64,000 nucleotides of DNA from Deltaproteobacteria bacterium (GCA_003194485.1 PQXD01000004.1:90822-154821); one strand, 5' to 3'; positions 7,987 to 55,885 are shown, counted from the stretch's first letter. Notes: generated from the sequence alone by a model not told the origin. Numbers and translations: made by a program.

Positions 7987-8976
7987 TTATTCTTTTTTTG
8001 TTTCCTCCTGAAATATCACTCTGTTACCTCCTGCCCTTTTTGCGATATACATCGAACTATCAGCTTTGTATATTAATTCGTTGATATCCTCGCGCAATCC
8101 CTTGTTTGTTCTCCTGAAGCGTGAGATGCCCAAGCTGAGCGAAGTCTTACCTACGTCCTGTTCATTCAGGTAATTGCGCCGTATACGTTCTGCTATCTGT
8201 TTTACCTGCTCTGTACTGGCATGCGGAATCATTACGGCGAATTCATCTCCTCCATAGCGAAATGGGATATCAACATTACTCCTGACGGAATCGTTCAGCA
8301 CACCGGCAAGGCGCCGGAGCACTTCGTCTCCTGCCTGATGCCCCAAGGCATCATTCAACTCCTTGAAATTGTCCAGATCTAACATGATCAGGAAGAGAGG
8401 ATAGTTCTGGCGGGTAGCCCTCTGGGCTTCCTTTTCAAGCTTTATGTCGAGAAAGCGTCTGTTGTAAAGGTCTGTAAGGATATCTCTTATGGAAAGTCGT
8501 TTCAGCAAGGCCCTGTATCCACGTTCCCTGATTATCCTGTCGAGCTTGGCCTTTAACTCGTCCAGATTAAAGGGCTTTCGAATGAAGTCACTTGCTCCGG
8601 CCCTGATGACGTCTGAGTAATTGAAGTCACGACTATATCCTGTTATTGCTATTATGTTGATTTCGGGCCAGAGTTTTTTAATTTCCCGGATAAGCTCCAT
8701 TCCATCCATTCTGGGCATAAGGAGATCGGTGATTACGATGGTTATCAAGTGCTGCTCCAGCAATGACATAGCCTCCAGGCCGTCACCAGCTAAATAATAT
8801 TGGTACCCTAAACGGGAAAAGAATTCAGACAATAAATCCAAGATAAAAGGATCGTCGTCAACAATCAGGAGTTGCTGAAGTTCTTGTGGCAGGTCTTTTG
8901 GGGTAAAATATGTTTGGCTTTCAGGTAATTCTGATTTTTCTGACAATGTATCCTCCGGGGCAGGAAGGGCCTGCAA
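7987..8976 (-). CDS. Response regulator receiver + GGDEF diguanylate cyclase
   Basis: Receiver region LLIVDDDPFILDLL...TDLLMPRMDG is followed by RYGGDEFAV (GGDEF) and an RxxD-like site. Confidence 0.85.
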   Translation of the reverse strand: MQALPAPEDTLSEKSELPESQTYFTPKDLPQELQQLLIVDDDPFILDLLSEFFSRLGYQYYLAGDGLEAMSLLEQHLITIVITDLLMPRMDGMELIREIKKLWPEINIIAITGYSRDFNYSDVIRAGASDFIRKPFNLDELKAKLDRIIRERGYRALLKRLSIRDILTDLYNRRFLDIKLEKEAQRATRQNYPLFLIMLDLDNFKELNDALGHQAGDEVLRRLAGVLNDSVRSNVDIPFRYGGDEFAVMIPHASTEQVKQIAERIRRNYLNEQDVGKTSLSLGISRFRRTNKGLREDINELIYKADSSMYIAKRAGGNRVIFQEETKKE

Positions 8977-9004: not shown

Positions 9005-9388
9005 TCAACTCAATCTCTCTTTTCCGCTTGATTTCGCTAAATTTCTGCGAACAGAAGACTTGAGATCATCTAAATTGAAGGACTTGACTATATAGTCATC
9101 CGAGGCCCATGATGCCAGATCCTGCTTGTACTCAGGATAGGCTGAACTCAGAACGACAGGCACCCTGGGCTTTTTCTGCTTCATTTGACGCAGTACCTCT
9201 ATACCGTCCATACCAGGCATATTGATGTCCAGTATGACAAGATCCGGCTCCAGGGCATCAAAGGCCTTAAGGGCCTCTTCTCCGCTCATCGCAGAGTGTA
9301 CTTCGTAGCCTTCCTCTTCCAGCTCTTCCTTGTAAAGGAGATGAATACTCTCTTCGTCATCAACTACGAGTATTTTTTCTTTATTCAT
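9005..9388 (-). CDS. Single-domain response regulator (CheY-like)
   Basis: 127 aa. KILVVDDEESI and DLVILDINMPGMDG. Confidence 0.85.
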   Translation of the reverse strand: MNKEKILVVDDEESIHLLYKEELEEEGYEVHSAMSGEEALKAFDALEPDLVILDINMPGMDGIEVLRQMKQKKPRVPVVLSSAYPEYKQDLASWASDDYIVKSFNLDDLKSSVRRNLAKSSGKERLS

Positions 9389-15096: not shown

Positions 15097-15318
15097 CTTG
15101 CCCTTTTGGAATATCCGGACGGCCTATTCCAGAGATGACCCGACGGCTGCCTTGCATTAGAACAAGATATGGCATTTTGCAAGTGCCTTTTAGAAATTTA
15201 TTATTATAATATCAGTTTTAGTTGGCGCAATCCTTATTCGATTACAGAGTGACCATTCACACTCTCTGGCAGATGGGAAGTGGGCGATTATCAACACGGC
15301 TATCATAATAGACCCGGC

Positions 15319-17808
15319 ATGAAGGACCTGCTTGCAGGCATTTTTTCATGTCTCCTCATTTTGGCAACGTCTGTCAACGGGCAGGATTTGGCAGGAATTC
15401 CTGAAAATAACCTGCCACAGGCCAAGATTCAGGTATCTCATGAAGCGGTTTCTCCTTCATGGCAGTTGGTTTGGAACGAAGCCAGGGAAATGGTGAAAAA
15501 AAATGAATTGGATGGTGCTATAGCTCTTTACAGGAAATTGATAAAAGATCGCCAAGGTCTGATAGAGGCCAGATTTGAATTGGCTTTGGTCTTAATGCGG
15601 TCTGATAAAGAAAATCAAGCCATACTGGAGCTTGAACATGTCGTAGAGGCCAGACCTCATGACATCCAGGCATTGTTCATTCTTGCAGAACTTCTGAGCC
15701 GTTCAGGTCAGTGTGATAAAGCCATAACCATTTATAAAAGTCTGGTGACAGAGCTTGATCTCCAGGGAAAAAACCACGGCATTGCAGGGAATGGATTACT
15801 GAATACCACTGAAGAGCTGTCCCTGGCAGAGGTTTTAGAAGGCATTGCCCGTTGTCTGGAATCCCAAGAGAGGTTTAATGAGTCAATAACATATCTGCAA
15901 AAGGCCTTGAGCATTGAACCTGACCGTAAAGGCCTTGAGCTTGATCTGGCCTGCAGGCTTCTGCGTTTAAAAAGAGCAAAGAGTTCCTTATCTCACTTCC
16001 AGAAATTGCTGCCTCAATATAAAGATGATCCCGGCTTTTTAACCAACTATGCAAAGGCCCTTTTAGCTGCAGGAGATCGAGATAAGGCTATTAGGACACT
16101 TGAGAGATTTGTAGCACTCTGCAAAGATAATACCGGGAAAGATTACACGGATAATCTTACATGGGGTGTTAACGAGCTTGTATCCTTATATCTGATGAAC
16201 GGAGAGGTCCGGTCAGCGATCAACGTCCTTGAAAATTTGAAACATGATCATCCAACTATGCTTGATAAGCAAATCCTGGCAACTTTGGGACGCCTGTATT
16301 TTGCCTCACGTAATTATCTCAAGGCCCTTGAGGCATTCAGGGTCTTCCTGAGAGAAAAACCTGACGATAAAATGGGGTTGCTGTTTACGGCCCGCACATA
16401 TGAACGCCTCCAGTTTCTTGCACCAGCCATTTCCATTTATGAAAAACTCTTACTGCATGAGCCCGATCCGGACATTGCTACGCATTTGGGTAAGTTGCTT
16501 TTAGAGACAGAAAGTTTTGACCGAGCAAACTCCCTGATTGCCGGGGATATTTATAATGGAGATGATATCAAGGGAAGAGAATTCCTGTTACGGATCTACC
16601 TGATGAACGGGGACAGAGAAAGTGTTGAAAAGCTTTTAAGCAGTGAAGGCGTTTTCCTCAAGGATAATGATATATCAGCCTTATATGTTTCTCTTGTCAC
16701 ATCGATTGGTTGTACTACGGGTGCTCGGATGAAATCTCATTTGTTAGGCAACGCCCTGTTTGCTCTGGCTGACCAGGTTGAGGAGAGGAGAGATCTCATG
16801 CAGGCCGGCGTGAAGCTGCTTTTGGATATTGGTCAACAGGACTTGGCAGAGAGGGTATTAAGGCGTTGTTGGCTTAAAGGCCGGTCCCTGTGGTCTGTTG
16901 ACATGTTGATCAATAATTACCTTGAGAAGAATATGCGGGAAGAGGCTGTTGCTTTGCTTGAGAGGGCACTATCTGTTTATCCCTCATCAGCAAGGCTTAA
17001 ACTTAGACAGGCCTGTCTGTTGCTTGACATGGGTGAGACTGACAGGGCAAGTAAGCTGCTTTCATCAATTAATACAGGAGATAATTGGAAGTGGATGAAA
17101 GAAAAAAGGCTGTTATATGAAGGCCGTGCCTTTGGCCTGGCAGGAAGATATGAAGAGGCACTCGATATTTACGGGGAAATAATTCAACAGGCACCAAATC
17201 ATCTGGAAGCACATAGAGGCAGATGGACCAATTTTGCAGCCTATGGATTGGCACGGAAGGCCGATGCAGAGGCGCTGGGGTTAAAGATGATTACAGGGAA
17301 TCCATCCTTTTTACATAATAATGGAGAGGGAAATGGAAATAATGAAAAACCGGTTCCAATTCTCGTAAAGAATGGGAGAATGATGCCGGCTCCCGGGGCC
17401 TGCCTGAAGGGATTGATGCAAAGTGAGGAATTGCTGCCACCTGAAGATATCCTTAGTTCTCCATTTTGCGAGATGGAAGGAGAGGCGTGTCCTTTACTGC
17501 TCGCCTTAGCCTACGAACGTTTTGAAAATTTTTCAGAAGCTGTTGCTATGTGGCTCTCTTTTTTAAAGAGACACGATACATACTGGCCCGGCTATGAACG
17601 TCTCGCCAAAATATACGAGGGCAGGGACAAGGCAAAATATGCAGAAAAATTACGATACAGGGCCTGTGACAAGATAAAACATCTACGATTGTATCACAGT
17701 GAATCAAAAACTGCCTCAGAAGAGGTTGGGCCTTCGGATCTGCGGATATGGCGAGAACTTGATGATATGGTTCTGAAATCCTGGGAGGGGGTATTCTGTT
17801 CCGATTAG
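15319..17808 (+). CDS. Large tetratricopeptide-repeat protein with N-terminal signal peptide
   Basis: MKDLLAGIFSCLLILATSVNG is a signal-like start at ATG 15319 (the ORF track starts at 15280). TPR-like A/L/Y-rich 34-aa repeats recur throughout. Confidence 0.75.
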   Translation: MKDLLAGIFSCLLILATSVNGQDLAGIPENNLPQAKIQVSHEAVSPSWQLVWNEAREMVKKNELDGAIALYRKLIKDRQGLIEARFELALVLMRSDKENQAILELEHVVEARPHDIQALFILAELLSRSGQCDKAITIYKSLVTELDLQGKNHGIAGNGLLNTTEELSLAEVLEGIARCLESQERFNESITYLQKALSIEPDRKGLELDLACRLLRLKRAKSSLSHFQKLLPQYKDDPGFLTNYAKALLAAGDRDKAIRTLERFVALCKDNTGKDYTDNLTWGVNELVSLYLMNGEVRSAINVLENLKHDHPTMLDKQILATLGRLYFASRNYLKALEAFRVFLREKPDDKMGLLFTARTYERLQFLAPAISIYEKLLLHEPDPDIATHLGKLLLETESFDRANSLIAGDIYNGDDIKGREFLLRIYLMNGDRESVEKLLSSEGVFLKDNDISALYVSLVTSIGCTTGARMKSHLLGNALFALADQVEERRDLMQAGVKLLLDIGQQDLAERVLRRCWLKGRSLWSVDMLINNYLEKNMREEAVALLERALSVYPSSARLKLRQACLLLDMGETDRASKLLSSINTGDNWKWMKEKRLLYEGRAFGLAGRYEEALDIYGEIIQQAPNHLEAHRGRWTNFAAYGLARKADAEALGLKMITGNPSFLHNNGEGNGNNEKPVPILVKNGRMMPAPGACLKGLMQSEELLPPEDILSSPFCEMEGEACPLLLALAYERFENFSEAVAMWLSFLKRHDTYWPGYERLAKIYEGRDKAKYAEKLRYRACDKIKHLRLYHSESKTASEEVGPSDLRIWRELDDMVLKSWEGVFCSD

Positions 17809-25037: not shown

Positions 25038-26312
25038 ATGCATGGTGAAATTATAGCTATAGGAGATGAGCTTGTATCCGGCAAAGTGCTCAATACCACT
25101 GGCAGCTTTGCAGCCAATAAGCTTTTTTCTGCCGGTTGCCAGATAACCAGGATAACATCCATTGGTGACGATCCCGATGATATCGAGGAATGTCTGCTGA
25201 CAGCAATAAAGAGATCAGAATACGTTATAATCACCGGCGGGCTTGGACCAACCAGTGACGATATAACTAATGAGGTAGCGGCCAAGGCCTTAGGGCGTCC
25301 TTTGGTACCGAATGAGGTAATTCTCGAGAAGATCAGGAGGGCGGAACGGCGATTTGTTAATCCTGTTTCTTTGAGTGAAAAGTTGGCTTGGTTACCTGAA
25401 GGTGCCGAAGTCCTGAATCCCGAAGGTTGCGCTGCAGGATATCTCTTGATCCACAAGGACATTCCTCTTTTTTTTCTGCCGGGAGTGCCAGGGGAGTTGG
25501 AAGATCACATGGTCCAGCGGGTTATTCCCAGGCTTAACGAGCTTATTGCCGGAAAATTATATGTAAGACAGCAGACCTTCAAGGTATTTGGCCTGACAGA
25601 GACAGAAATAAACACGCTTCTTGAAAAGCTGGAATCCAGCCGGGATGGCTTGAGTATCGGTTATTATCCCAACTTCCCCGAAGTCAACGTGACCGCCACT
25701 GTAAAGGGCGTAAATCCGGAAGAAGTTAACAAAATTTTTGAAATGGCATGCGATACAATCAAAAAGCATCTGGACAAAAATATAGTTGCCGTTAATGAGG
25801 AAACTCTTGAAGAGGTAGTAGGCAGACTTCTGTCTGAAAATCATGGCGTTCTCGTCCTTGCAGAGTCCTGTACCGGCGGCCTTCTGAGCCAACGTGTGAC
25901 CAGCATTCCCGGCAGCTCCGGTTGGTTTGAAAGGGCAGTAATTACATATAGCGACAAGTCAAAGGAAGATCTCCTTGGGGTCTCCCGCGAGACTTTATCC
26001 TGTTATGGTGCAGTCAGTCACCGGACTGCCGAGGAAATGGCAGACGGTGTGAAACGATTGGCCGGTACTGGCTATAGTCTTGCTGTTACCGGCATTGCGG
26101 GGCCATCCGGTGGTACTTCTCAAAAGCCTGTAGGCACAGTCTATATTGCCCTATCAACCCCGGAACGAACAGTAGTGGAACGATTCCAATTTGCCGGGAC
26201 AAGACACATGATACAGGTACTGGCAGCGGAAACTGCTCTTGACTGGCTGAGACGGTATTTGAGTTATGGTACGTACTTTCCTGGCTATAGATCTGCCGGG
26301 CAGGCAGCGTAA
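25038..26312 (+). CDS. cinA: CinA family protein (MoCF-binding domain + nicotinamide-nucleotide amidohydrolase PncC domain)
   Basis: MHGEIIAIGDELVSGKV...ITGGLGPTSDDIT in the N-domain, and AESCTGGLL in the C-domain. Confidence 0.9.
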   Translation: MHGEIIAIGDELVSGKVLNTTGSFAANKLFSAGCQITRITSIGDDPDDIEECLLTAIKRSEYVIITGGLGPTSDDITNEVAAKALGRPLVPNEVILEKIRRAERRFVNPVSLSEKLAWLPEGAEVLNPEGCAAGYLLIHKDIPLFFLPGVPGELEDHMVQRVIPRLNELIAGKLYVRQQTFKVFGLTETEINTLLEKLESSRDGLSIGYYPNFPEVNVTATVKGVNPEEVNKIFEMACDTIKKHLDKNIVAVNEETLEEVVGRLLSENHGVLVLAESCTGGLLSQRVTSIPGSSGWFERAVITYSDKSKEDLLGVSRETLSCYGAVSHRTAEEMADGVKRLAGTGYSLAVTGIAGPSGGTSQKPVGTVYIALSTPERTVVERFQFAGTRHMIQVLAAETALDWLRRYLSYGTYFPGYRSAGQAA

Positions 26313-26835
26313 GATACTTGAAGAACATCAGGGCCGATGGAAGTCTGCCAAGGCAGATGTGAAGTGGATCTATCCGTCCAATATGCACCTGACACTGAAA
26401 TTTCTGGGTGAAATTCAGGAATCAACCATAGAGAGCGTGATAGCTGTCTGCAGAGAGGTCTGTTGTCTTTACAGGAGTTTTTCTTTGTTTTTAAATGACA
26501 CGGGCGTCTTCCCAAACCTGAGACGACCCCGGGTACTGTGGATCGGAATCGGAGGTGAAGCAGATATTCTGTGCAAATTGCAAGGCAGTATTGAAGCAGC
26601 CTTGGAGAAAAAGGAGTTCCCACGGGAAGGCCGTGTCTTTAAGCCTCACCTGACTGTAGGCCGAATTCGTTCCCCCCGCGGGCTTCCACGGCTTCTTGAA
26701 GTATTTGTAAAGGATAAGATTGTAATTGAACCTTTTGCAGTAAAAGAAGTAATTGTATATAAAAGCCGGTTGACTCCCAGCGGACCTTTATACAGTCCTC
26801 TGGCTCGATGCGGTTTAGGGCCGGGGAAGAAATGA
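26266..26835 (+). CDS. thpR: RNA 2',3'-cyclic phosphodiesterase (2H family, ThpR/LigT)
   Basis: Two HxT motifs: HLTLKFLG and HLTVGR. 189 aa. Overlaps the cinA 3' end. Confidence 0.85.
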   Translation: MVRTFLAIDLPGRQRKILEEHQGRWKSAKADVKWIYPSNMHLTLKFLGEIQESTIESVIAVCREVCCLYRSFSLFLNDTGVFPNLRRPRVLWIGIGGEADILCKLQGSIEAALEKKEFPREGRVFKPHLTVGRIRSPRGLPRLLEVFVKDKIVIEPFAVKEVIVYKSRLTPSGPLYSPLARCGLGPGKK

Positions 26836-26841
26836 ACTGCT

Positions 26842-27075
26842 AAAAAAATGAACATCGAACATCGAACATCCAACATCGAATATTGAATGGGAAAAGATGA
26901 AGGAACAGAGGTCAGAAGCCGGAAGCCGGAGGTCGGAAAAACAGCAACCAAATATTCCTGAACCTTTGTTTCTCATTTGGTGTTTGTTTTTCATTCGACG
27001 TTGGGCGTTCGATGTTCGATGTTGGACGTTCATCTCTTGAACCTCTGAACCCTGAACCTCTGAACCTCTGAACCT
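26842..27075. repeat. Low-complexity palindromic repeat with heptamer and octamer arrays
   Basis: (GAACATC)n at 26850-26891 faces the inverted array ATTCGAC GTTGGGC GTTCGAT... at 26993-27034. (TCTGAACC)n follows at 27037-27075. The element fills the convergent gap between thpR and the ATPase gene. Confidence 0.85.
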
Positions 27076-27344
27076 CTATCTTATGCAGGCCGCCTTAACC
27101 TGTTTTAGTTCTGTATCTCCTTTTAAGACCTTCTGTATACCGTCCTGCTTCAGGGTAAACATTCCCTGCCTCATGGCATGCTCCCGTATTTCTTCCAAGG
27201 GGCATTTCTTCTGTATAAGCTTCTTAAGGTTGTCATCCGACACGAGCAGTTCGTGAATCGCGAGCCTGCCCCTGAATCCGGTCCTGTTGCAATGTTGGCA
27301 ACCCTTTGGCCGGTATAGCTTTATGTCATTCAGGTCTGATGGTT
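27076..27344 (-). pseudogene. Out-of-frame C-terminal continuation of the PilB/GspE-like ATPase
   Basis: In a different frame from 27345-29435, the reverse strand reads SNPTLEPSDLNDIKLYRPKGCQHCNRTGFRGRLAIHELLVSDDNLKKLIQKKCPLEEIREHAMRQGMFTLKQDGIQKVLKGDTELKQVKAACIR-stop (stop at 27076-27078). This is the normal C-terminus of the family, including the second CxxC. Confidence 0.8.
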
Positions 27345-29435
27345 CTAGGGTCGGGTTGGATGAAAACCATACTCGTGTAATATGTTTTCCTTCTCGCTGT
27401 CGTCAGGCTCGTAAGCCTGGCGACACTTGGGACAAAGCCTTTTTACCAGCCTTTGTGCAAGAACCCCCAACAGGGCGTCGGCAAAATTGTACGGGTCCAT
27501 TCCCATACCCAAAAGCCTTGTAACTGTTTCCGGGGCGGAATTGGTATGGAGTGTCGAAAAAACCAGATGTCCGGTCAGGGACGCCTCTATTATTGTCCTG
27601 GCAGTTTCTTCGTCTCTGGTTTCGCCAATCATTATCACATCCGGGTCCGCCCTTAAAAAGGCCCTGAGAACCCGGGCAAAAGTCAGGCCTATATGTGGTT
27701 TCACCTGTACCTGACGCAATCCGTCCTGCACGATTTCTACAGGATCTTCTGCCGTCCAGATTTTTTTATCAGGCCGGTTTATATGACCTAGTGCGGCATG
27801 CAGGGTAGTTGTCTTTCCCGACCCGGTAGGACCAACCAGAAATATGAGCCCATAGGGCAACTGTAAAAGCTGTTTTAGCTGTTTCAGGTTGTAATCAAGG
27901 ATATCTATGTGGTCAATCGGCATGGCCTCGGAAGAAGCCAGTAACCTGAGTACGATATCTTCGTTGCCTTCAATTGTTGGAAGTGTGGCTACACGCAATT
28001 CCAAGGTCTTGCCAGAGCGAGTCTTGAACTTTATCTTTCCGTCTTGAGGCAAGCGCTTCTCGGCAATGTCAAGGTTAGACATGATCTTGATCCTGGATAT
28101 CATTGCACGCTTATAGTTATACGGAATGGTTTGATAACGCATGCAATCGCCATCAATCCTGAAGCGAACCAGGGCCCCCCGTTTGCCTGCCAAGGATTCA
28201 ATGTGAATGTCAGAGGCCCGGCGCTGGTAGGCGTCCTCTATGGTTTTATTGGCTATCTGTACTACTACGCTGTCAGATTCTGATGCTAAACCTTCTTCAT
28301 CCTCCTCTTCTTCTTCTGATTCCGCGCCCTCATCAACCAGTTCAAGTTGCTCAAATACGTGATCATCAGCTCCTTCTGCAGAATATTTTCCATAGAAATA
28401 ATCTATGAATCTGTCGATATCTTCCTGCAGGGAAACCGCGAATTGAAAATCTTTGGCCTTAAGAACGCTTCTTATATTGTCTATCTTTGCCAAGTCATGG
28501 GGATTATCCAGCGCAACTATAATGGTCCCTGACTTTTCACGAATCGGGGCACAGGAATTGCTTCTAAAAAAGTGCTCTTTGATCCCTTGTACGCAAGATG
28601 GTGTGGCCCCCACTTCCAGTTCGTCAAATTCCACAAAGGGGCATCGATAGTATTCGCTGAGGGAGCGGCCGAGTTCTGTCTTGTCTATGCCAAACTGGTT
28701 TAGCAGGATACTTTCTATGGATTTTCTTCCCTGTTTAGCCAGTTCTCTGCTCCTGTTAAGCTGTTCTTCAGACAGCAACTGATTACGGATGAGATAGTAG
28801 AATCGGCCATACTTCTGGGCTGACCGGGAAAGTTCTTCAAGTCTCTGCTTTGCATTTCTGAATGCTGGATCAAGACGGATGATTTGTTCCAGTGAATCAA
28901 CGGCCTTGGGAATCGCGCCGGTTCGTTCGTGGGTAAGTGCCAGCTTATATAGTATATCCAATCGTTCATCCCTGGACAGTTGCGGATCACCAAGCGCCTC
29001 CTGTAAATGTTCAAGTGCATCGAAGGGCATATCCAGCCGTAGATATGATTCCCCAATCTTTGCCTGAATTATCCCAGGCCTGTATCCTGTTTCATTTAAG
29101 GCCTTGAGTTCCTCTATGGCCTCTGAATAAAAGTCTGCCTCCATCAAACCGATGCAGCTGTTGAATTTTTTGTCTTGATCTTCTTCAATATCTTCAGGGC
29201 CGGAGGCTGAGTCCGCTCCTCCTGACCGGGCTTTTCCCCCGCTGCCATCAATCTGAATTTTTTTCAGCAGAGATTCTACCTCGGTATGGAGGGGATGAGA
29301 TTGATCACCTGTCAGTTTCTGAAGCTCCAGGCAAATAAGAAGAGCCTCTTCGTTTAGGCCCTGACTATGATACAAATCGGCTTCTGCCAGCCTGTCTTTA
29401 ATTGTATTGTCCGAAGTTGAATGGAGTTTATTCAT
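27345..29435 (-). CDS. TPR + T2SSE_N (MshEN-like) + PilB/GspE-family secretion/pilus ATPase, reading frame interrupted near the C-terminus
   Basis: Walker A GPTGSGKTTT, Asp box TAEDPVE, Walker B DPDVIMIGETRD, His box TGHLVFSTLHTN and the first CPKC of the tetracysteine site. The N-terminal 230 aa are TPR-like. The start overlaps the upstream gene's stop by 8 nt. Confidence 0.85.
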   Translation of the reverse strand: MNKLHSTSDNTIKDRLAEADLYHSQGLNEEALLICLELQKLTGDQSHPLHTEVESLLKKIQIDGSGGKARSGGADSASGPEDIEEDQDKKFNSCIGLMEADFYSEAIEELKALNETGYRPGIIQAKIGESYLRLDMPFDALEHLQEALGDPQLSRDERLDILYKLALTHERTGAIPKAVDSLEQIIRLDPAFRNAKQRLEELSRSAQKYGRFYYLIRNQLLSEEQLNRSRELAKQGRKSIESILLNQFGIDKTELGRSLSEYYRCPFVEFDELEVGATPSCVQGIKEHFFRSNSCAPIREKSGTIIVALDNPHDLAKIDNIRSVLKAKDFQFAVSLQEDIDRFIDYFYGKYSAEGADDHVFEQLELVDEGAESEEEEEDEEGLASESDSVVVQIANKTIEDAYQRRASDIHIESLAGKRGALVRFRIDGDCMRYQTIPYNYKRAMISRIKIMSNLDIAEKRLPQDGKIKFKTRSGKTLELRVATLPTIEGNEDIVLRLLASSEAMPIDHIDILDYNLKQLKQLLQLPYGLIFLVGPTGSGKTTTLHAALGHINRPDKKIWTAEDPVEIVQDGLRQVQVKPHIGLTFARVLRAFLRADPDVIMIGETRDEETARTIIEASLTGHLVFSTLHTNSAPETVTRLLGMGMDPYNFADALLGVLAQRLVKRLCPKCRQAYEPDDSEKENILHEYGFHPTRP

Positions 29436-31005
29436 TTGTCAGTGTATTTGAGAGGCTTTCCAGCGTTGCCACGGATATTTGTTTATTTTCTATCTCCAGA
29501 TTACCAACCCATGGTCCATTTCTCTCTGCGGATGGTTCCCAGGAATACTCATGAGTTATGGAAATGTTCTCTAAAGAGGTATCCAGCATGAGGACCAGCC
29601 CCTTATCCGCACGGGACAGGACTAATACAGTCGGATTGCCTGAGGGCTGAGAGTGGCCGGAAGATGAATTCGATTTCTGCAGTACCGGAAATTCGAGTTT
29701 GATAAGCTGCGATTCTTCCTTATTCGACAGTTCCCCCTGCATCAATGACTTAAGCTTTGTCCATGGCCAGGTCTTGAGCTTCTTTAATTTAAAAGTATTT
29801 AGCTTATTAAGCCCGTTCCTGGCCCACCAGGGCGCAGTTCCAGCAAATGCTACATCTTCAGGGGCAAATGCCACTTGCTTTTGGTCCCATTGGGCAACTA
29901 CAAGTTCATTCCATGGGCAGGAAATATCCCCTGAGGTTATTTCTTCTTTTTTATCAGTTTCCATCGGAATGTCTCGGGTACGTTTAGCAGCATAATCGGG
30001 CACACCAACGGATGGCTCGTAATCGCCGGTTAAGGCCTTTTCCAGTATTCTCTTTTGTTCTTCAAGCCTGCCCTTAATATTTTCCTGAAAATGATGTAAC
30101 TTTTCCATCCCCGGAGTCCGGGCAAGGAGTCTTTCAACCGGCAAGATGTGACCTATACAGTCATCAAGGATTTTGATGTGGGATTTGACCGTATTCGCCA
30201 ATGCCTGGTACTCGGGCTCAATGGGAGCCACCTTTTCTCGCGTTCCCGCCTCTAAAACTGAATCTGCCGGCTGTTCCTGTCGGCCGGGGAATTTTTCTTT
30301 CAGGGCAGTCTCTCCGGCATCTTCGCGGGCAACTTCAGGTACCTCCATACCTATAGCTGATTCAAGCTCTTTCTTGGCGGATTTGAAGAGTTCCTCTTCA
30401 GCCTTTGTGCTCTGCTCCCCGCTCCAAGCTACGGTCTTTAAGACATCAAGGCCTCTCTGCAGGGCAACGGGTCCGGAAGTGGGCATTTTCTCAGGATGGT
30501 CTGCTATCCCTTCAAGTGTCATTGACATGAGACAGAGCAGTTCGTGAAGGTTTTTATCTGCCCCTATCTCCGGATTTTCCCGGATTGTCTCTACCAGTTT
30601 TTTGGCTGATACTACTTGTGTTTGATCAAGCTCCCACTCAAGGGCCAACAATATTTGATTGAGCTGGCTGATCTGTTGTTCCAGGTTGACAGCCTTGGTC
30701 TCCTTGTCCTCAAGCCCCAGATCAAAACCTGATCCCAGAATTTCGTCAGCGGCGATCTCCATCTGTTCAGCGGGAGCCTCCAGCTCTTTGAAATCTGGAA
30801 GCCTGATTTCTTCCGGGCGTTTTTCTTCCTGGCCTTCAACCTGAAAGGATGGCCCCTGACCTGTTTCTTCTTGCGATAAGTCTTTTACTTCACCAGTTAA
30901 TGGATCTATTTCTATCTGTCGTGATGCCTTAAACAGTTCGTCAATAGTACTTTCTACGTTTCTGGTGAAACTTTCGGGATCAGTGGTCTTTTTTGTCTGA
31001 TCCAT
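29428..31005 (-). CDS. Hypothetical acidic protein (525 aa), no domain recognised with confidence
   Basis: Long ORF with consistent coding character, E/D/K-rich and coiled-coil-like through the N-terminal 350 aa. The C-terminal ~170 aa (CPWNELVVAQWDQKQVAF...VLVLSRADKGLVLMLDTSLENI) faintly recall a CheW-like fold. Confidence 0.6.
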   Translation of the reverse strand: MDQTKKTTDPESFTRNVESTIDELFKASRQIEIDPLTGEVKDLSQEETGQGPSFQVEGQEEKRPEEIRLPDFKELEAPAEQMEIAADEILGSGFDLGLEDKETKAVNLEQQISQLNQILLALEWELDQTQVVSAKKLVETIRENPEIGADKNLHELLCLMSMTLEGIADHPEKMPTSGPVALQRGLDVLKTVAWSGEQSTKAEEELFKSAKKELESAIGMEVPEVAREDAGETALKEKFPGRQEQPADSVLEAGTREKVAPIEPEYQALANTVKSHIKILDDCIGHILPVERLLARTPGMEKLHHFQENIKGRLEEQKRILEKALTGDYEPSVGVPDYAAKRTRDIPMETDKKEEITSGDISCPWNELVVAQWDQKQVAFAPEDVAFAGTAPWWARNGLNKLNTFKLKKLKTWPWTKLKSLMQGELSNKEESQLIKLEFPVLQKSNSSSGHSQPSGNPTVLVLSRADKGLVLMLDTSLENISITHEYSWEPSAERNGPWVGNLEIENKQISVATLESLSNTLTNE

Positions 31006-31051
31006 AGATATTCTCCTTGTATTTTTTCACAACTGACCCAAGAATATTTCC

Positions 31052-31669
31052 TTAGTAACTTGTCAAAAGATGCTTTTTTGCCACGTAGCGGATGGTTCTC
31101 TTGCTTATTTCTTTAAGGGTTTCAAATACCCCTAGGCCTTTAATAGCTGCTGCCTCAAAGACATCTGTATTAAGTTCCTTGTTCAGAACTGCTTCAAGCT
31201 CTTCCCTGGTCAGCGTTGGTATGGATGTATGCACAAGATCACATTTGTTAAATTGAAAAATAATTGGAATTTTTTCCAGGGTTAGATTGTGCTCAAGGAG
31301 GTTGTGCCGCAGATCTTGGAAGCTCTCTATGTTATTTTCATAACGTACTTTAAGATAGTCGGCAACAAAGACCAGGCCATCCACACCCTTTAGAACCAGT
31401 CTCCTGGTCGCTTCATAAATAGCCTGACCAGGTACGGTATAGAGCTGTATTCTCACATCAAAGCCATTTATCTTTCCCAAATTCAAAGGAAGCAGGTCAA
31501 AAAAAAGCGTCCTGTCTCCTTTTGTTTCAATGGTCAGCATTTTACTCCGGGCTTGATGGTTCATGGCATTATATATGTAGAGCAAATTCGTAGTCTTTCC
31601 GCATCGTCCGGGACCGTAATAGACTATCTTGCAGTGTATTTCCTTTTTGCTGAGATTTATCAGGGCCAT
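31052..31669 (-). CDS. mglA: Ras-like GTPase MglA
   Basis: EIHCKIVYYGPGRCGKTTNLLYIY, DRTLFFDLLP, LYTVPGQ, LKGVDGLVFVAD and FNKCDL align along the full length of M. xanthus MglA. Confidence 0.9.
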   Translation of the reverse strand: MALINLSKKEIHCKIVYYGPGRCGKTTNLLYIYNAMNHQARSKMLTIETKGDRTLFFDLLPLNLGKINGFDVRIQLYTVPGQAIYEATRRLVLKGVDGLVFVADYLKVRYENNIESFQDLRHNLLEHNLTLEKIPIIFQFNKCDLVHTSIPTLTREELEAVLNKELNTDVFEAAAIKGLGVFETLKEISKRTIRYVAKKHLLTSY

Positions 31670-32073
31670 ATTGAATTATCTTTAGCCAAATGCTTTTCTA
31701 TGATTTTTGACAGTCTTGTTATTCTCAACCTGACCAAACCCAGAGATACATTGTCTCCAAATATTGTTACCAGAATTAATTCAGTGCCTATTCGTGCAAA
31801 GTGTATGCTGTCTTTTTTGCCTTTGTGAAACAGGAGTGCAAAGTCGTCTTCTCCTATCAGTTTTGCGATCTGCGAAGTGGCGCCGAAGTTGGCTGCCGCC
31901 AGGGCTGCCAGGGAGGTCGTGTCAAGATCGCAGGTTTTATCACCGCAAGCCGCCACCACATTGCCCGTTTCATCAATCAAGAGGACGGTATCAACGCCTG
32001 CCTTAATAAGGGTATTTTCTATCTGTATTTTGGCCTCTTCCAGGAATGAAGCGGTCAGCACTAAATCGGCCAC
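31660..32073 (-). CDS. mglB: Roadblock/LC7 domain protein MglB (MglA GAP)
   Basis: 137 aa. The Roadblock/LC7 pattern (VLLIDETGNVVA...AALAAANFGA...). Its 3' end overlaps the mglA start by 10 nt. Confidence 0.8.
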   Translation of the reverse strand: MADLVLTASFLEEAKIQIENTLIKAGVDTVLLIDETGNVVAACGDKTCDLDTTSLAALAAANFGATSQIAKLIGEDDFALLFHKGKKDSIHFARIGTELILVTIFGDNVSLGLVRLRITRLSKIIEKHLAKDNSIWP

Positions 32074-32422
32074 GTTTAAACCTCAAAAAATAAAAGGATA
32101 TCTTGTCTCAAAAAGACGGATAAACTCTCAGCTGAGACTCCCGAATTAAAGAGACTCTAATGGTATTATCGACCAGATCATTGAAGATATTAATTCTATC
32201 CCGACGCTTGCGAGGTAACTCTCAGCCACTGCTCAGGACGTAGAATAGACAGAACTTGAATTTGATAAGGGCCACAGTAAATATTCTTTCCTGCCTTGAA
32301 GCGGTTACCTTTTTCCGGGTTTCAAAGCTCACTCATTGCAGACCGAAAGAGGCAGTGCAATTTGGCCCGCGATCGAAACCCTGCAAAAGGCAAACCGCTC
32401 CTGCGGCAGGGCACGGATGGCA

Positions 32423-32627
32423 ACCGTTCACGGGAAGGGGATATTTCTTTGAACAGTTTAACGGAAGCCCCCGTAGTTTTCTTGGCTTTTGCTGTGGGGG
32501 AAACCCCGGCTCCTGAGCGCAGCGAAGGAGAACGGGGAGGGGGCAAGACTCCCCCATGTCAAAAGCCTTAAGAAAACAAGGGGCTGAAGTGTTAAGTGAA
32601 AAGAAATGTCCCCTGCCCGTGAACGGT
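32423..32627 (+). repeat. C-module copy I3 (arm type a)
   Basis: Arms ACCGTTCACGGGAAGGGGATATTTCTTT / AAAGAAATGTCCCCTGCCCGTGAACGGT. Apical hairpin at 32504-32537 with GCGCAGC at 32517-32523. Confidence 0.85.
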
Positions 32628-32644
32628 CTGCACAGTGGATTTAA

Positions 32645-32841
32645 ACTGATCACAGGGGAGCTTCTTTATGGAGACGATTTGCGTCAGCCCCGCAAGTTTT
32701 CCTGGCCTTTACAGCATGGGAAACCCCGGCTCCTGAGCGAAGCGAAGGAGAACGGGGAGGGGGCAAGACTCCCCCATGTCAAAAGCCTTAAGAAAACAAG
32801 GGGCGAGAGCATTTGGAAGAAGAAGCTCCCCTGTGACCGGT
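32645..32841 (+). repeat. C-module copy I4 (arm type b, chimeric mid-stem)
   Basis: Arms CACAGGGGAGCTTCTT / AAGAAGCTCCCCTGTGACCGGT. The left mid-stem resembles I2 (CAGCATGGGAAA) and the right mid-stem resembles I3 (CTCCCCCATGTCAAAAGCC). Apex GCGAAGC at 32737-32743. Confidence 0.8.
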
Positions 32842-32982
32842 TACCAGTGGACCACGGGTTCATAAGAATATTTACGGTCGCAAATGGAGCAGTCAGTCCT
32901 TTATTCTACCTGTTGATGTAAATGAATTTGCCGAAGTTTAGGAAGGGGGCAGAGAGATTTATGGGGTATATCTGGGGAATAG

Positions 32983-34932
32983 TTATTTTAAGAGGTCTTT
33001 CATCTTCTCGGCAAGGCTTTCGGCATCAAGGCCCTGAAGGCGGTACAGATCATCTGGCTTACCTGAAGAACCATAGTTTGTCACTCCCAGGGTAAGAAGC
33101 TGCTGGCACATGCCTGCCCCTATAAGTTCTTGCGCCACCATGGCCCCCAGGCCCGTGCATACCACATGGTCTTCAACCGTTATGAGCGGACCTTTCTTAG
33201 CTGCCTCAAGTATTGATTTCCTGTCTATGGGCTTGAGAGAAGCCATGTTGAGCACCCCTACCGACAAGCCCTGTGAATCGAGAATTGACCATGCTTCGAG
33301 GACCTGAGAGGTAACCGAGCCATAGGTGATAAAAGTGGCCTCATCACCCTGCCTTAACCAGTCTGCCCTCCCTGGCTGAAATAAATAGTCCGCATCGAAA
33401 AACGGCCTTCCGTCCATTGAAGTAATTATTGGCAACTTGGACCTTCCCATACCCACAAAGCAATTGCCTGGATTGGCAGCCACATACCGGACTATCCTGT
33501 CAGTCTGATTTGGATCTGCCGGCATGAATACGGAGAAGCCGAAGAGGTTGTTGAAAAGTCCCACATAGTCGAGACTCTGATGGGTCGGGCCGTCTTCTCC
33601 TACGTCCAGCCCCAGATGAGTAGATACTATTTTGAGATGGGTCCTGTTTAGGTCATTTAGCCGGTGCTGGTTGTAAGTCTCTGCCGCGGCAAAGACCCCA
33701 AAGGTGCTGAAGAAGCTAACCAATCCTTCTCTGCTCACCGCTCCGGCGCAGGTAGCTGCATGGTGCTCCTGTATGCCTGTTTCTATGAATGTGTTGCGGG
33801 AAACGCTGTGAAAGCCCTGCATCTTTACTGATCCCTCCAGATCACAGCTAAATCCTACGATCTTCGGAACAGAATCCGCAACATTGTTCCTTTGGGCCAG
33901 ATCCCTTAATGCTGTACCGTAAGCAGAACGGCAGTCTGTTTTGGTCCCGGGATCGTAGACAATGGGTTCTCCGGGATCAATGGATGGGAATTTTGCCTCT
34001 GGTGTCTTGCGATGCCTTTCTATTCGGTGTTCGATTCTATTCCTTGACCACAGCTCAAGTAGCCCCTGATCTTGCCCCAGTTCTCTTAATGCCGACCGGG
34101 CATCCTCGTTTGACAGCGGAGATCCATGATACTTTGCCTTATTCTCCATAAAGGAGATACCTTTTCCCATGACGGTGCGCATGACCAGGACGGTGGGTCG
34201 GCCTGTCACAAGGCGGTCATGTGTCCATGCCCTCTTCAGGGCCTTGAATACGGTCTGGAAATCATTGCCGTCAGGTACGTACAATACATTCCAGCCTGCG
34301 GAAGTATACTCATCCCTTACACGGACAGGCATTACCTCTTCGGTAGAACCTCCTATCTGCAGGTGATTTCTGTCGATTATACCAATCAGGTTCCCTTGAC
34401 CGAACTTGATTGCAAAACGTCTGGCTTCGGATATCTGCCCCTTCTGTTGTTCTCCATCGCCCATGAGGACGATTGTTTTACCCGGCCGAGCGAGGAGATT
34501 CTGGGCAAGGCATATACCCGTACCCACTGAAAGCCCCTGGCCAAGATTTCCGGTATTCCATTCAACTCCAGGCATGGTTTGTTCTATATGGCCGGCACAG
34601 GATGAGCCGGCACGACGAAACTCGCTGAGGAAATCTTCTTCTGAGAAATAACCGAATTCAGCGAGTACGCTGTAGACGCCTGGAGAGATATGCCCGATGC
34701 TTATGACCACGCGGTCACGGTCCGGCCAACCGGGTTCTGTTGGACGATGTCTGATTACGCTGTAAAGGACAAGCAGGATGTGCAGGGAGGACAGAGAACC
34801 GCCTGGATGACCGCTTCCTGCCAGTGTGGTGGAAAGGATAACGCGCGTGGCACATCTGTTCCACATAGTGTGCAGCTTGGTGATCTGTTCCTGTGTAAGT
34901 TCGTTTTGTTTTTCTATGTCTATGTGAAACAT
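32983..34932 (-). CDS. tkt: Transketolase
   Basis: 649 aa. HPGGSLSSLHIL, GDGEQQKGQ (ThDP-binding GDG), EDGPTHQSLDYV and a C-terminal transketolase domain. Confidence 0.85.
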   Translation of the reverse strand: MFHIDIEKQNELTQEQITKLHTMWNRCATRVILSTTLAGSGHPGGSLSSLHILLVLYSVIRHRPTEPGWPDRDRVVISIGHISPGVYSVLAEFGYFSEEDFLSEFRRAGSSCAGHIEQTMPGVEWNTGNLGQGLSVGTGICLAQNLLARPGKTIVLMGDGEQQKGQISEARRFAIKFGQGNLIGIIDRNHLQIGGSTEEVMPVRVRDEYTSAGWNVLYVPDGNDFQTVFKALKRAWTHDRLVTGRPTVLVMRTVMGKGISFMENKAKYHGSPLSNEDARSALRELGQDQGLLELWSRNRIEHRIERHRKTPEAKFPSIDPGEPIVYDPGTKTDCRSAYGTALRDLAQRNNVADSVPKIVGFSCDLEGSVKMQGFHSVSRNTFIETGIQEHHAATCAGAVSREGLVSFFSTFGVFAAAETYNQHRLNDLNRTHLKIVSTHLGLDVGEDGPTHQSLDYVGLFNNLFGFSVFMPADPNQTDRIVRYVAANPGNCFVGMGRSKLPIITSMDGRPFFDADYLFQPGRADWLRQGDEATFITYGSVTSQVLEAWSILDSQGLSVGVLNMASLKPIDRKSILEAAKKGPLITVEDHVVCTGLGAMVAQELIGAGMCQQLLTLGVTNYGSSGKPDDLYRLQGLDAESLAEKMKDLLK

Positions 34933-54160: not shown

Positions 54161-55885
54161 CTAAGATTGAAGTTCCTGCATCTTATCTCTGGCCCAGCTC
54201 AGGTCCGGATCTAACTCAAGGGCCATCTCGTACCAGGTGATTGCCGCCTCCTTCATGTTCATATGCTGGAGGTTGCTGGCTATATTGGCATAATCTATTG
54301 CAGATCCCGGGTCGATAGATATTGCCTGCTCAAAGGCCTCTATTGCCTTGAGGTGTTCTCCTGCACGATAGAAGCAATATCCGAGGAGGTTGTGGATCTC
54401 CTTGAGCTCCGGATTCGAGTCCCTGGCACCCTCAAGCTCTTTAATTGCCCTGGGAAAGTCCTCCAATTCCTTATAGCATAACCCCCGGTGACAATAGATG
54501 CTTGCCACTTCCTCAGGGGCAGGATTGAGCTGAAGTGCCTTGTTATACCATTTAAGCGCCTCTCTATAATCCCCAAGCTGTTCATGTACATGTCCGGTAT
54601 AAAAGGCTATATCAAACCGTTGCGGGTACAGATCATCTATGGCAGCCAATACAGATAACGCCTTTTGTGGATGCTCTATCGAGTCGACCAGGCGGGCACA
54701 ATGAAATGCTACATCAAGATTTCTGGTGCGGTCCCTGAAGTGATTACCTGGGACCACCGCATATACTGCGGGAACACCCAACTCAGGGTGTGTAATGTCC
54801 ACCAGATATGCCCTTAAGCCGACGTCTGCCAGGGCCTTGCACAGCCCTTCGACCTCCTGCCTGAAATTTTCAGAGCTACAATTCGGCATTGATTCTACAG
54901 AGACTCGAAAGGGTTCATCAAGCACGTATGAGGCCTCATCCAGATTGGAAAATTTAGGAAGTCCGCTCTCTACATACTCACCTTCTCTGTCGAAGTCTCC
55001 GGCCAGCTGCGCTACCTCTGTGAGCGCCCTTATTACTGCCCGCTGAGGATCAGGAGCTGTCCCGGCAGTGTATACTATTTCGCTCCTGGATGGAAAAGTC
55101 GATGTATCCCATGCAATGGCTCCGACCGTAGGAATGCCGAGATCGAGAGAAAAATCTTTCAGTATCAGCTCTATGTTCAGTCGATGGAATTTGGCCAGAA
55201 GCTCTCTGGCCACAGGATTTTTAATGGTATTAAGCTCTATGGTCGGGGTAGACAACTTTTCATGAGTAATGACGGAACAGACATGACGTTCAACTACCTC
55301 CGAAAGGGCCTGGACGGCCGCCTCTTCAAATGAATTCCCTGAAGCTGAGCCATTATATTCGTTTAAAAGCCAAAACCAAAAGAAAGGGAGCCTGAACTCT
55401 CTTCCGACTGTCGGGCAATATGCCTTTACCCAATCAAAGACCATGGTCTCAATCAAGCCATCGGCCTTTGAGACAGTATCTTCATCCCGGCCTTTGAGAT
55501 GTAAGGCCTTAAGCATATCCTCAAGAGGCACTGCATCGGCCTCAAGGTCCATACGCCTGCAACGCATACGTTTCCTGTTTTTCACGAAGTCAAAAAGGCT
55601 GAAGCGTTCTACCAACTCCATCACAGCACTTGCCTCTGCCTGGGCAGGAGTGGCACCCTTGCCCATTTGCCTGATTGTGCCGGTCAGATGGCTTGCAGAT
55701 GGGCAATACCTGCTTGTGTAAACCGGTATTCCGAGCCTGCCTTTATCCACACGTTCGGTATACTGAAGAATGGGTACTCCCAGGATGTTAAGCCGGTCCC
55801 GGATCCATTCCAGGGTCTCATCTGCCGGCCTCACTTTATCAAGGGCACTGCCTGGTTCTTTAAAACTGTCTTTTAAAAATTCCAT
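54161..55885 (-). CDS. ycaO: YcaO-like protein with C-terminal TPR domain
   Basis: GKGATPAQAEASAVMELVERFS is a YcaO signature. The C-terminal ~180 aa are TPR repeats (AFYTGHVHEQLGDYREALKWYNKALQLNP...). Confidence 0.8.
   Translation of the reverse strand: MEFLKDSFKEPGSALDKVRPADETLEWIRDRLNILGVPILQYTERVDKGRLGIPVYTSRYCPSASHLTGTIRQMGKGATPAQAEASAVMELVERFSLFDFVKNRKRMRCRRMDLEADAVPLEDMLKALHLKGRDEDTVSKADGLIETMVFDWVKAYCPTVGREFRLPFFWFWLLNEYNGSASGNSFEEAAVQALSEVVERHVCSVITHEKLSTPTIELNTIKNPVARELLAKFHRLNIELILKDFSLDLGIPTVGAIAWDTSTFPSRSEIVYTAGTAPDPQRAVIRALTEVAQLAGDFDREGEYVESGLPKFSNLDEASYVLDEPFRVSVESMPNCSSENFRQEVEGLCKALADVGLRAYLVDITHPELGVPAVYAVVPGNHFRDRTRNLDVAFHCARLVDSIEHPQKALSVLAAIDDLYPQRFDIAFYTGHVHEQLGDYREALKWYNKALQLNPAPEEVASIYCHRGLCYKELEDFPRAIKELEGARDSNPELKEIHNLLGYCFYRAGEHLKAIEAFEQAISIDPGSAIDYANIASNLQHMNMKEAAITWYEMALELDPDLSWARDKMQELQS

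Follow-up and report, generated by a model that had tools for sequence, protein, structure and literature searches.

Can a small-GTPase switch and a pilus-type motor be wired together in a single operon, and what would a protein encoded between them contribute? The question is raised by a stretch of 64,000 nucleotides from a Deltaproteobacteria bacterium (GCA_003194485.1 PQXD01000004.1:90822-154821), here called the window, in which an mglB-like gene, mglA, a gene for an acidic protein (protein X) and a gene for a PilB/GspE-family ATPase follow one another. These four genes stay together in relatives, their stop and start codons usually overlapping or nearly abutting, while the surroundings change. 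By analogy, and with a probability of roughly one half, this conserved Desulfobacterota operon can be read as a control unit, complete in itself, for a motor of the type IV pilus class. It would be the Myxococcus MglA-SgmX(TPR)-PilB pathway in hard-wired form, where TPR stands for tetratricopeptide repeat.

The four-gene operon and its conservation

All four open reading frames (ORFs) are co-directional on the minus strand in the order mglB-mglA-X-ATPase (Table 1). The original prediction, made from the sequence, had described closely packed junctions, and these read as claimed: the mglB stop and the mglA start overlap by 10 nt (ATGGCCCTGA), X follows mglA after a gap of 46 nt, and the X stop overlaps the ATPase start by 8 nt (ATGAATAA). 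The gene identities that it had assigned are likewise matched by Robl_LC7, MglA, T2SSE and MshEN.

A scan of one genome per GTDB species yielded 40 loci, all labelled as Desulfobacterota lineages, from uncultured species of the sulfate-reducer type; because the scan relied on two N-terminal peptide patterns, this distribution is a lower bound. The labels, which were taken from database records and not from phylogeny, include Desulfobulbia, Dissulfuribacterales, Desulfobacterales, Thermodesulfatator-like lineages and "Desulfobacterota bacterium M19" (L038). In tblastn searches with the window proteins, gene order and strand were kept in every one of these loci having enough sequence. Identity to the window is 62-87 % for MglA, 70-92 % for the ATPase core and 38-83 % for its TPR region, and drops to 24-33 % for X in distant loci; the flanking genes of the window are common only to its closest relatives (L001-L011). 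That the module is kept while its flanks change and X diverges this far argues that it is under selection, and the arrangement is far beyond chance. X and the ATPase gene lie -8 to +15 nt apart in 20 out of 28 loci, which fits co-translation of both products. The original prediction had made its case depend on conservation of the arrangement in relatives, which 40 Desulfobacterota species-level genomes now provide despite their changing flanks; the profiling across Desulfobacterota and Myxococcota that it had proposed brought up the former, but no Myxococcota locus was recovered.

The first gene product matches Pfam Robl_LC7 (E 1.4e-12, 47.6 bits versus a 23-bit cutoff) and Myxococcus xanthus MglB (PDB 6h5b, E 2.9e-23), while the NCBIfam MglB equivalog, a Thermus-type model, is not reached (58 bits versus a cutoff of 200). 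It ends at residue 137 and the 6h5b alignment stops near residue 127, so that the C-terminal helix of M. xanthus MglB is missing. The second product aligns with M. xanthus MglA (6h17) over 195 residues with E 5e-60 and ~60 % identity, and with Thermus thermophilus MglA with E 1e-55. As marks of MglA we took a GxxxxGKT P-loop, an intrinsic arginine finger in switch I, TxxGQ replacing DxxGQ, NKxD and an adjacent Roadblock/LC7 MglB. The protein here keeps GPGRCGKTT (P-loop), DRTLFFD (switch-I arginine), YTVPGQ (switch II) and NKCD, and the mglB-like gene lies directly upstream. Judged by these sequence features, the operon encodes a genuine MglA GTPase and a Roadblock-type partner MglB, for which a role as GTPase-activating protein (GAP) is predicted.

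The fourth gene product scores E 4e-103 (345 bits) against Pfam T2SSE. Its best solved relative is M. xanthus PilB (3jc8, E 4e-111), followed among others by T. thermophilus PilF and Geobacter PilB; these extension ATPases of type IVa pili (T4aP) rank before EpsE/GspE (1e-98). Walker A (GPTGSGKTT), the Asp box (WTAEDPVE), and Walker B and the His box (DPDVIMIGETRD, TGHLVFSTLHTN) are present, and by its motifs the protein is a PilB/GspE-family ATPase of the hexameric type with the full catalytic set. The original prediction had called this motor complete; the catalytic motifs bear it out, but the frame is broken at 27347 in the window, which had been silently read through.

The N-terminal 213 residues of the ATPase have no counterpart in solved ATPases. 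A profile of 19 orthologous N-termini matched the consensus TPR 8bu0 with E 5e-20, CTPR3 (1na0) with 8e-8 and MamA with 2e-8 (profile positions 89-191), which confirms the N-terminal TPR block originally proposed; the single-sequence Pfam TPR_2 match (E 2e-5, 24.7 bits) lies just under the gathering score of 27. The TPR extension is present in every ATPase orthologue. Between it and the motor stands the MshEN-like domain, which was recognised as had been expected, but with a degenerate motif for cyclic di-GMP (c-di-GMP). This motif consists of two tandem 24-residue copies of RLGxx[LVI][LVI]xxG[LVI][LVI]xxxxLxxxLxxQ (PMC5013675); the two halves here read GRFYYLIRNQLL... and KSIESILLNQFGI..., and in each half other residues stand in for R1, G3, G10 and Q24 in 34 of 34 orthologues (the window plus 33). 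Since both motifs are degenerate in all orthologues, regulation by c-di-GMP through MshEN is unlikely, and we rejected c-di-GMP gating of the motor via this domain after the motif test failed. The loss of the motif fits a motor that swapped second-messenger for GTPase control.

Table 1. Position of the operon genes, their domains and associated sites in the window
Feature	Position	Strand	Description
mglB-like	31660-32073	minus	137 aa from a GTG start; Shine-Dalgarno GAGG 8 nt before it; homologue of Roadblock/LC7 GAPs
mglA	31052-31669	minus	205 aa; MglA structure match
Protein X	29428-31005	minus	525 aa; pI 4.77
X residues 9-45	30871-30981	minus	Most conserved linear motif of the family, DPExFTxxIExTIDDLFxxxxxIEIDPLTxEVK; helix plus beta-hairpin; pLDDT 78-87
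X residues 108-218	30352-30684	minus	Five-helix CheA P1/Hpt-like bundle; pLDDT > 90
X residues 264-326	30028-30216	minus	Long antiparallel helical hairpin (H264-296, H301-326); pLDDT > 90
X residues 360-525	29431-29928	minus	CheW/CheA-P5-like beta-rich domain with WPWSKL helical insert; pLDDT > 90
PilB/GspE-family ATPase	27076-29435	minus	~786 aa if repaired; open frame here 27345-29435, 696 aa
Further TPR-like hairpin	29256-29393	minus	ATPase residues 15-60; separated from the TPR module by an acidic, Gly-rich linker
TPR module, three repeats	28836-29162	minus	ATPase residues ~92-200
MshEN/GSPII-type N1 domain	28389-28796	minus	ATPase residues 214-349; Pfam MshEN E 6e-14, 52 bits
Frameshift site	27345-27350	minus	One base (T in near-identical genome) absent at 27347, interrupting ...HPTRP/LEPSDL...
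Weak sigma-70-like site, TTAATA-17-GATAAT	32165-32193	minus	~90 nt upstream of mglB; candidate operon promoter only

Protein X and its predicted architecture

Protein X contains 94 Asp and Glu versus 60 Lys and Arg residues. Searches of Pfam, NCBIfam and PDB sequences returned nothing meaningful, whether a single sequence, a 35-member or a 57-member alignment was used, and as profiles the alignments matched only designed proteins made of helical repeats. About 50 close relatives (47-98 % identity) came from a word-index protein search, all annotated as "hypothetical protein" in metagenome-assembled genomes of Deltaproteobacteria/Thermodesulfobacteriota. A profile search of 1.84 billion cluster representatives gave 100 clusters, 76 of them below E 1e-30, and the family is thus much broader than these close relatives. 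As far as homology searches can tell, X represents a new family, which appeared only in Desulfobacterota in the searches made.

The AlphaFold2 model of X built from a 57-member diverse alignment has a mean predicted local distance difference test score (pLDDT) of 79.3, with 296 residues at 90 or above, and consists of four ordered parts with acidic disordered linkers between them. A first model from 35 close relatives reached a pLDDT of 51.7 and its C-terminal domain was unusable; its helical bundle already matched CheA P1. In a Foldseek search of the PDB, the top 14 entries were all CheW or P5-containing CheA chains (E 4e-4 to 1e-2, probability 1.0; among them 6s1k, 9a72, 2qdl, 8c5v, 1k0s, 2ch4, 3ja6 and 4jpb), with TM-scores of 0.53-0.62 and a root-mean-square deviation (rmsd) of 6-8 Å to single-domain CheW/P5 chains. 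The next matches were CheA P1/Hpt structures: 8c5v_C (TM 0.69, rmsd 2.8 Å), 1i5n, 3kyi, 2lp4 and 2ld6. At the sequence level, Pfam CheW was the most-matched family among X members, being found in 2 of 57 with a best E of 0.016, which is below threshold, and hhalign of the C-terminal X profile with Escherichia coli CheW gave E 0.015 with the RG..vPv / ivv..g..g.vvD region aligned. The order of P1-like bundle, hairpin and P5-like domain in X is collinear with CheA minus P2 and P4, in whose places short disordered stretches stand.

Two hallmarks of a signalling kinase were sought in X. No HATPase_c match to a P4 kinase was obtained, and just ~35 disordered residues separate the hairpin from the CheW-like domain. 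In the bundle, no column of the 57-member alignment has His in 20 % of members or more; the sole frequent His of X, H276 (70 %), sits in the hairpin, outside an H-box context. A phospho-relay role of the Hpt-like bundle was rejected, as there is no conserved His. The modelled fold supports a P1-like assignment of the bundle, and X as a whole is probably a non-catalytic, kinase-less CheA-like scaffold. The original prediction had presented the 525-aa protein as uncharacterised and acidic; it is acidic and matches no family, but it is not featureless, given what the structure prediction suggests.

Conservation within the family follows the ordered parts. In the N-terminal motif, D22 is kept in 91 %, L24 and F25 in 98 % and P35 in 89 % of 57 diverse members, and an acidic disordered linker comes after it; we propose that residues 9-45 are a docking peptide. 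Further conserved features are IEIDPLT itself, an invariant W124 within [LI]TLEWE in the bundle, CPW...WPWSKL in the CheW-like domain and, in the hairpin, E291, K302 and L303 (93-98 %). X retains four structured regions under purifying selection despite fast-evolving linkers.

Candidate mechanism and its rivals

How could these proteins act together? In the reading that we favour, MglB would set the place and time of the GTP-bound state of MglA. MglA-GTP would then engage the TPR module of the ATPase directly, via X, or both, and this engagement would recruit or license the motor at a platform resembling that of type IV pili, whose genes would lie elsewhere. X would serve as a non-catalytic scaffold produced in step with the ATPase. 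Its N-terminal peptide may be a ligand of the TPR module or of MglA, docking peptides being a typical type of TPR ligand. Its Hpt-like bundle without His may be a docking site for receiver domains, as in FimL-PilG, and through its CheW-like domain the complex would be tethered to a partner of polar or receptor type. A CheA-like X would tie the module to chemosensory-type signalling.

This reading has precedents elsewhere. M. xanthus uses MglA-GTP together with the TPR protein SgmX to bring PilB to the leading pole (PMC7519303, PMC11580455), and Bdellovibrio MglA binds the TPR protein Bd2492 1:1 (PMC3983030). PATAN-REC regulators are reported to bind the PilB1 motor in Synechocystis (bioRxiv 10.1101/2021.06.11.447907), and FimL has Hpt domains without His (PMC3019171).

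Candidate receivers for the X bundle would be the PATAN/REC-CheB-like proteins encoded beside the operon in most relatives. A divergent cluster lies directly upstream of mglB in 22 (by ORF clustering) to 24 (by tblastn) distant loci (given as L012-L037, L041 and L044-L046; for example L014:236-4762, minus strand). It comprises an HDOD protein and then three paralogous REC-CheB_methylest proteins, the last of which has an N-terminal DUF4388/PATAN domain. In L038:10630-13272, the gene that immediately follows that of the ATPase, on the same strand, encodes a PATAN/DUF4388 protein of 337 aa, and a convergent PAS-HisKA-HATPase-REC hybrid kinase gene is next. That PATAN proteins occur in the vicinity of mglA/mglB is known from earlier work (PMC4316618).

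A partnership of MglA and X is also suggested by a gene fusion. In two loci from independent metagenome samples (L005, positions 933-1997, and L006), a 355-aa in-frame fusion joins a complete MglA to the N-terminal motif and the hairpin of X and has neither the Hpt-like bundle nor the CheW-like domain; mglB is an upstream remnant, and an intact ATPase gene (782 aa) follows. Gene calling had placed the start of the fusion inside MglA (P0050, 319 aa). The fusion provides Rosetta-stone-type support for an MglA-X partnership, and it could also mark a decaying locus.

Several observations weigh against a dedicated pilus-motor module built around a CheA-like scaffold. No pilin, platform (PilC/GspF), PilM/GspL, secretin or PilT gene is present among the Pfam-scanned ORFs of the 64-kb window (most ORFs above ~300 aa and all operon neighbours), as the original prediction had stated of pilin and platform genes next to the operon, and no pilin, platform, PilM/GspL or secretin gene is recurrent within +/-6 kb in relatives. 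PATAN, CheB-like and HDOD genes are not adjacent in the window's clade and are absent from the 64-kb window. The ATPase scores below the NCBIfam cutoffs of both PilB (TIGR02538, 512.7 bits versus 675.65) and GspE (TIGR02533, 485.7 bits versus 630.25), which makes it a divergent branch of the extension/secretion ATPase clade. The CheW-like assignment of X draws on a predicted structure, moderate TM-scores and marginal sequence signals. By topology alone, the hairpin of X may take the position of the CheA P3 dimerisation domain, a specific structural match to P3 not having been obtained. The contacts MglA-TPR, X-TPR and X-REC are conjectural, and that the motor is GTPase-gated is something we infer from gene linkage. 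Finally, the ATPase frame is not continuous in the window: the ORF extends only as far as 27345 (696 aa), and the ~90 residues that complete the protein, LYRPKGCQHCNRTGFRGR...KAACIR, are encoded in another frame down to 27076.

The second CxxC falls within the frameshifted stretch, and the tetracysteine CPKC...CQHC is complete only once the frameshift is repaired. A contig that is 99.5 % identical to the window (L047, GCA_019308155.1) has an extra T at 27347 and an intact ATPase of 785 aa, and aligning the window gene with orthologues likewise shows a single base to be missing; the 33 other orthologues are all intact (764-849 aa), bar one ended by a contig edge. Conversely, in that near-identical assembly gene calling splits X into proteins of 249 and 267 aa (L047:1506-3045; window ~30277-30313), where the nucleotide alignment with the window is interrupted for ~35 nt. 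This is the mirror image of the lesion in the window and suggests local errors in both assemblies. Different single lesions in near-identical assemblies indicate a sequence or assembly error rather than a programmed frameshift or decay, and the comparison of the two sequences makes the 1-nt deletion in the window most likely an assembly error, not biology. A programmed frameshift and a pseudogene were both rejected, as the 99.5 %-identical genome and all other orthologues encode intact ATPases and X is broken there instead.

A bolder version of the favoured mechanism is possible but rather doubtful. X would be a CheA descendant that has lost its kinase and phospho-acceptor and bridges MglA-GTP, the PATAN/REC-CheB-like receivers and the TPR arm of a dedicated PilB-class ATPase, and the operon would be a new class of GTPase- and chemosensory-gated motor module.

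The strongest competitor, which we consider unlikely, turns the relation around: the module would mainly be a chemosensory output branch in which X is an array component, its CheW-like domain binding chemoreceptors and its Hpt-like domain binding receivers, the array is the chief regulator of the ATPase, and MglA/MglB are accessory polarity cues. The collinearity of X with CheA and its matches to CheW/P5 and P1 structures speak for this, as do the HDOD and three REC-CheB-like genes adjacent in 22 to 24 relatives, and Rhodobacter sphaeroides CheA3, a kinase-less CheA with His and P5 domains that resides in an array, sets a precedent (PMC6829392). However, the module's recurrent neighbours include no methyl-accepting chemotaxis protein, CheA kinase or CheR, and an Hpt-like domain without histidine excludes phosphotransfer. 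Only the second (middle) of the three CheB-like paralogues in L014 keeps the GSTGG nucleophile motif. It is MglA and MglB that are the invariant partners, while CheB-like genes are absent near the operon in the window's clade, in L032, where the flanks are housekeeping genes only, and in L038-L042 (these and L032 labelled Desulfobulbus/Desulfobulbia).

Less likely again is that the ATPase does not serve a pilus and powers another type IV filament machine or one akin to type II secretion, with MglA gating polar secretion and not motility. The NCBIfam GspE score (486 bits) comes close to that of PilB (513 bits), both under their cutoffs, there are no adjacent pilus genes, and in Bdellovibrio the MglA-TPR hub is tied to a TamAB secretion operon (PMC3983030). 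But genes of a type II secretion system are not adjacent either, the best solved relatives of the ATPase are T4aP extension ATPases ahead of EpsE/GspE, and the PATAN neighbours fit regulation of a pilus motor, as PATAN-REC proteins are reported to bind PilB1 (10.1101/2021.06.11.447907). It is highly improbable that the linkage is mere co-regulation of an ordinary mglBA pair and an ordinary pilB around an unrelated filler gene, or a locus decaying here, with no dedicated complex: these organisms may have no MglA other than this one, which shares 60 % identity with that of M. xanthus, and the ATPase is frameshifted in the window and X split in L047 and truncated and fused in L005, but order and strand are conserved in 40 of 40 loci while flanks change, stop/start overlaps are frequent, every ATPase orthologue has the TPR extension, the four structured regions of X are conserved under purifying selection, and the frameshifts, differing between 99.5 %-identical assemblies, point to sequence errors.

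Surroundings, related systems and significance

Housekeeping genes flank the operon in the window. LigT, CinA, PgpA and a fumarate-reductase-type flavoprotein are encoded convergently on its downstream side, and a transketolase-like gene, OmpH and AmiC lie on its upstream side. Scans for promoters and terminators gave no more sites than expected from shuffled sequence, and an Rfam search of 26000-33500 found no RNA family. The spacer between mglB and the transketolase-like gene (32074-32982) is unusually long, ~900 nt, and holds a 121-aa ORF on the plus strand (32556-32921) without a Pfam or Rfam match. Between the convergent ATPase and LigT genes, 26843-27074 holds a large imperfect inverted repeat of short tandem units. 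Its 52-nt arms (26843-26894 and 26987-27038) are complementary at 75 % of positions, rising to 90 % in a 31-nt core that consists of (AACATCG)n, and a (TGAACCTC)n tandem run at 27036-27074 begins immediately after the ATPase stop. The repeat could be an element resembling repetitive extragenic palindromes (REP) or miniature inverted-repeat transposable elements (MITE), or a bidirectional terminator. Elsewhere in the window, a REC-GGDEF diguanylate cyclase gene (7987-8976) stands beside one for a stand-alone receiver protein (9005-9388), both on the minus strand; they are possible signalling inputs, but no connection to the operon was found and we regard them as unrelated. An 842-aa all-TPR protein (15280-17808, plus strand) and a YcaO cyclodehydratase that bears a TPR array fused at its C-terminus (54161-55885, minus strand) are, as far as tested, unrelated to the operon.

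The closest known system is the MglA/MglB-SgmX-PilB pathway of Myxococcus with its accessories FrzS and SopA (PMC7519303, PMC7668184, PMC11580455). Both it and the operon here have MglA, a Roadblock GAP, a TPR link to a PilB-type ATPase and additional poorly characterised adaptor proteins; Myxococcus MglA is ~60 % identical to the one here, and M. xanthus PilB is closest to the ATPase core. The components lie at separate loci in Myxococcus, where SgmX is a free protein of 14 TPRs, whereas here they form one operon and a three-repeat TPR is fused to the ATPase; the adaptor here is a CheA-like protein whose architecture is unlike what has been described for SopA or FrzS. In Myxococcus, direct SgmX-PilB contact was not detected, and the route of SgmX to PilB is stated to be unknown (PMC11580455). 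The MglA of Bdellovibrio bacteriovorus makes direct contact with Bd2492, a TPR protein, in a hub that governs type IV pilus formation at one pole, but in this species mglB is lost, the TPR gene belongs to a tamAB operon and is not fused to an ATPase, and there is no CheA-like partner (PMC3983030). The original comparison with MglA acting through TPR proteins is apt in view of both SgmX and Bd2492 (PMC7519303, PMC3983030).

For X, the nearest counterparts are two chemosensory relatives, although no sequence-level homology to either could be shown. R. sphaeroides CheA3 (PMC6829392) has a His domain and P5 and no P4, to which the Hpt/P1-like bundle and the putative CheW/P5-like domain of X would correspond, and its P1 (3kyi) is among the Foldseek matches; it differs in keeping a phosphorylatable His and a phosphatase region and in sitting in a receptor array, whereas the X bundle lacks a conserved His. 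Pseudomonas aeruginosa FimL (PMC3019171), like X, has Hpt-like domains, with Gln in place of His, and a pilus-regulating context, but it is without the CheW-like domain predicted for X. Beyond both, X has a putative P3-like hairpin and a conserved peptide at its N-terminus, and its genetic linkage to MglA/MglB is obligate. The ATPase resembles MshE/PilB-type c-di-GMP ATPases (PMC5013675) in carrying MshEN/GSPII N1 ahead of the motor domains, but MshE has no TPR extension, and the ATPase here combines one with degenerate c-di-GMP motifs.

The kind of control is known, that is, MglA-controlled type-IV-pilus-class ATPases; new are the hard-wired operon and a protein family with a predicted CheA-like architecture. 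In agreement with the original prediction, X and the ATPase were not recognised as parts of a described system: they fall below every curated family threshold, and no published description of the operon or of X was found in the full-text literature on MglA/MglB with PilB/TPR, Desulfobulb* and PATAN/HDOD. A 2014 survey of prokaryotic Ras-like GTPases found that the neighbourhoods of MglA groups 1, 4 and 5 vary and now and then include PATAN genes, and does not describe a link of a PilB-type ATPase to MglA (PMC4316618).

The X family extends the examples of chemosensory components reused as scaffolds, of which FimL and CheA3 are two, and, throughout a phylum represented mainly by metagenomes, the operon connects MglA modules with PATAN, REC and HDOD proteins. 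It may offer a compact natural system to study small-GTPase control of a pilus-type motor: with the TPR covalently on the ATPase and the switch, GAP and adaptor co-encoded, contacts that have been elusive in Myxococcus should be short-range, stoichiometric and testable with four proteins. If the bolder reading is true, this would be a minimal fused system in which GTPase-to-motor coupling takes place inside one complex.

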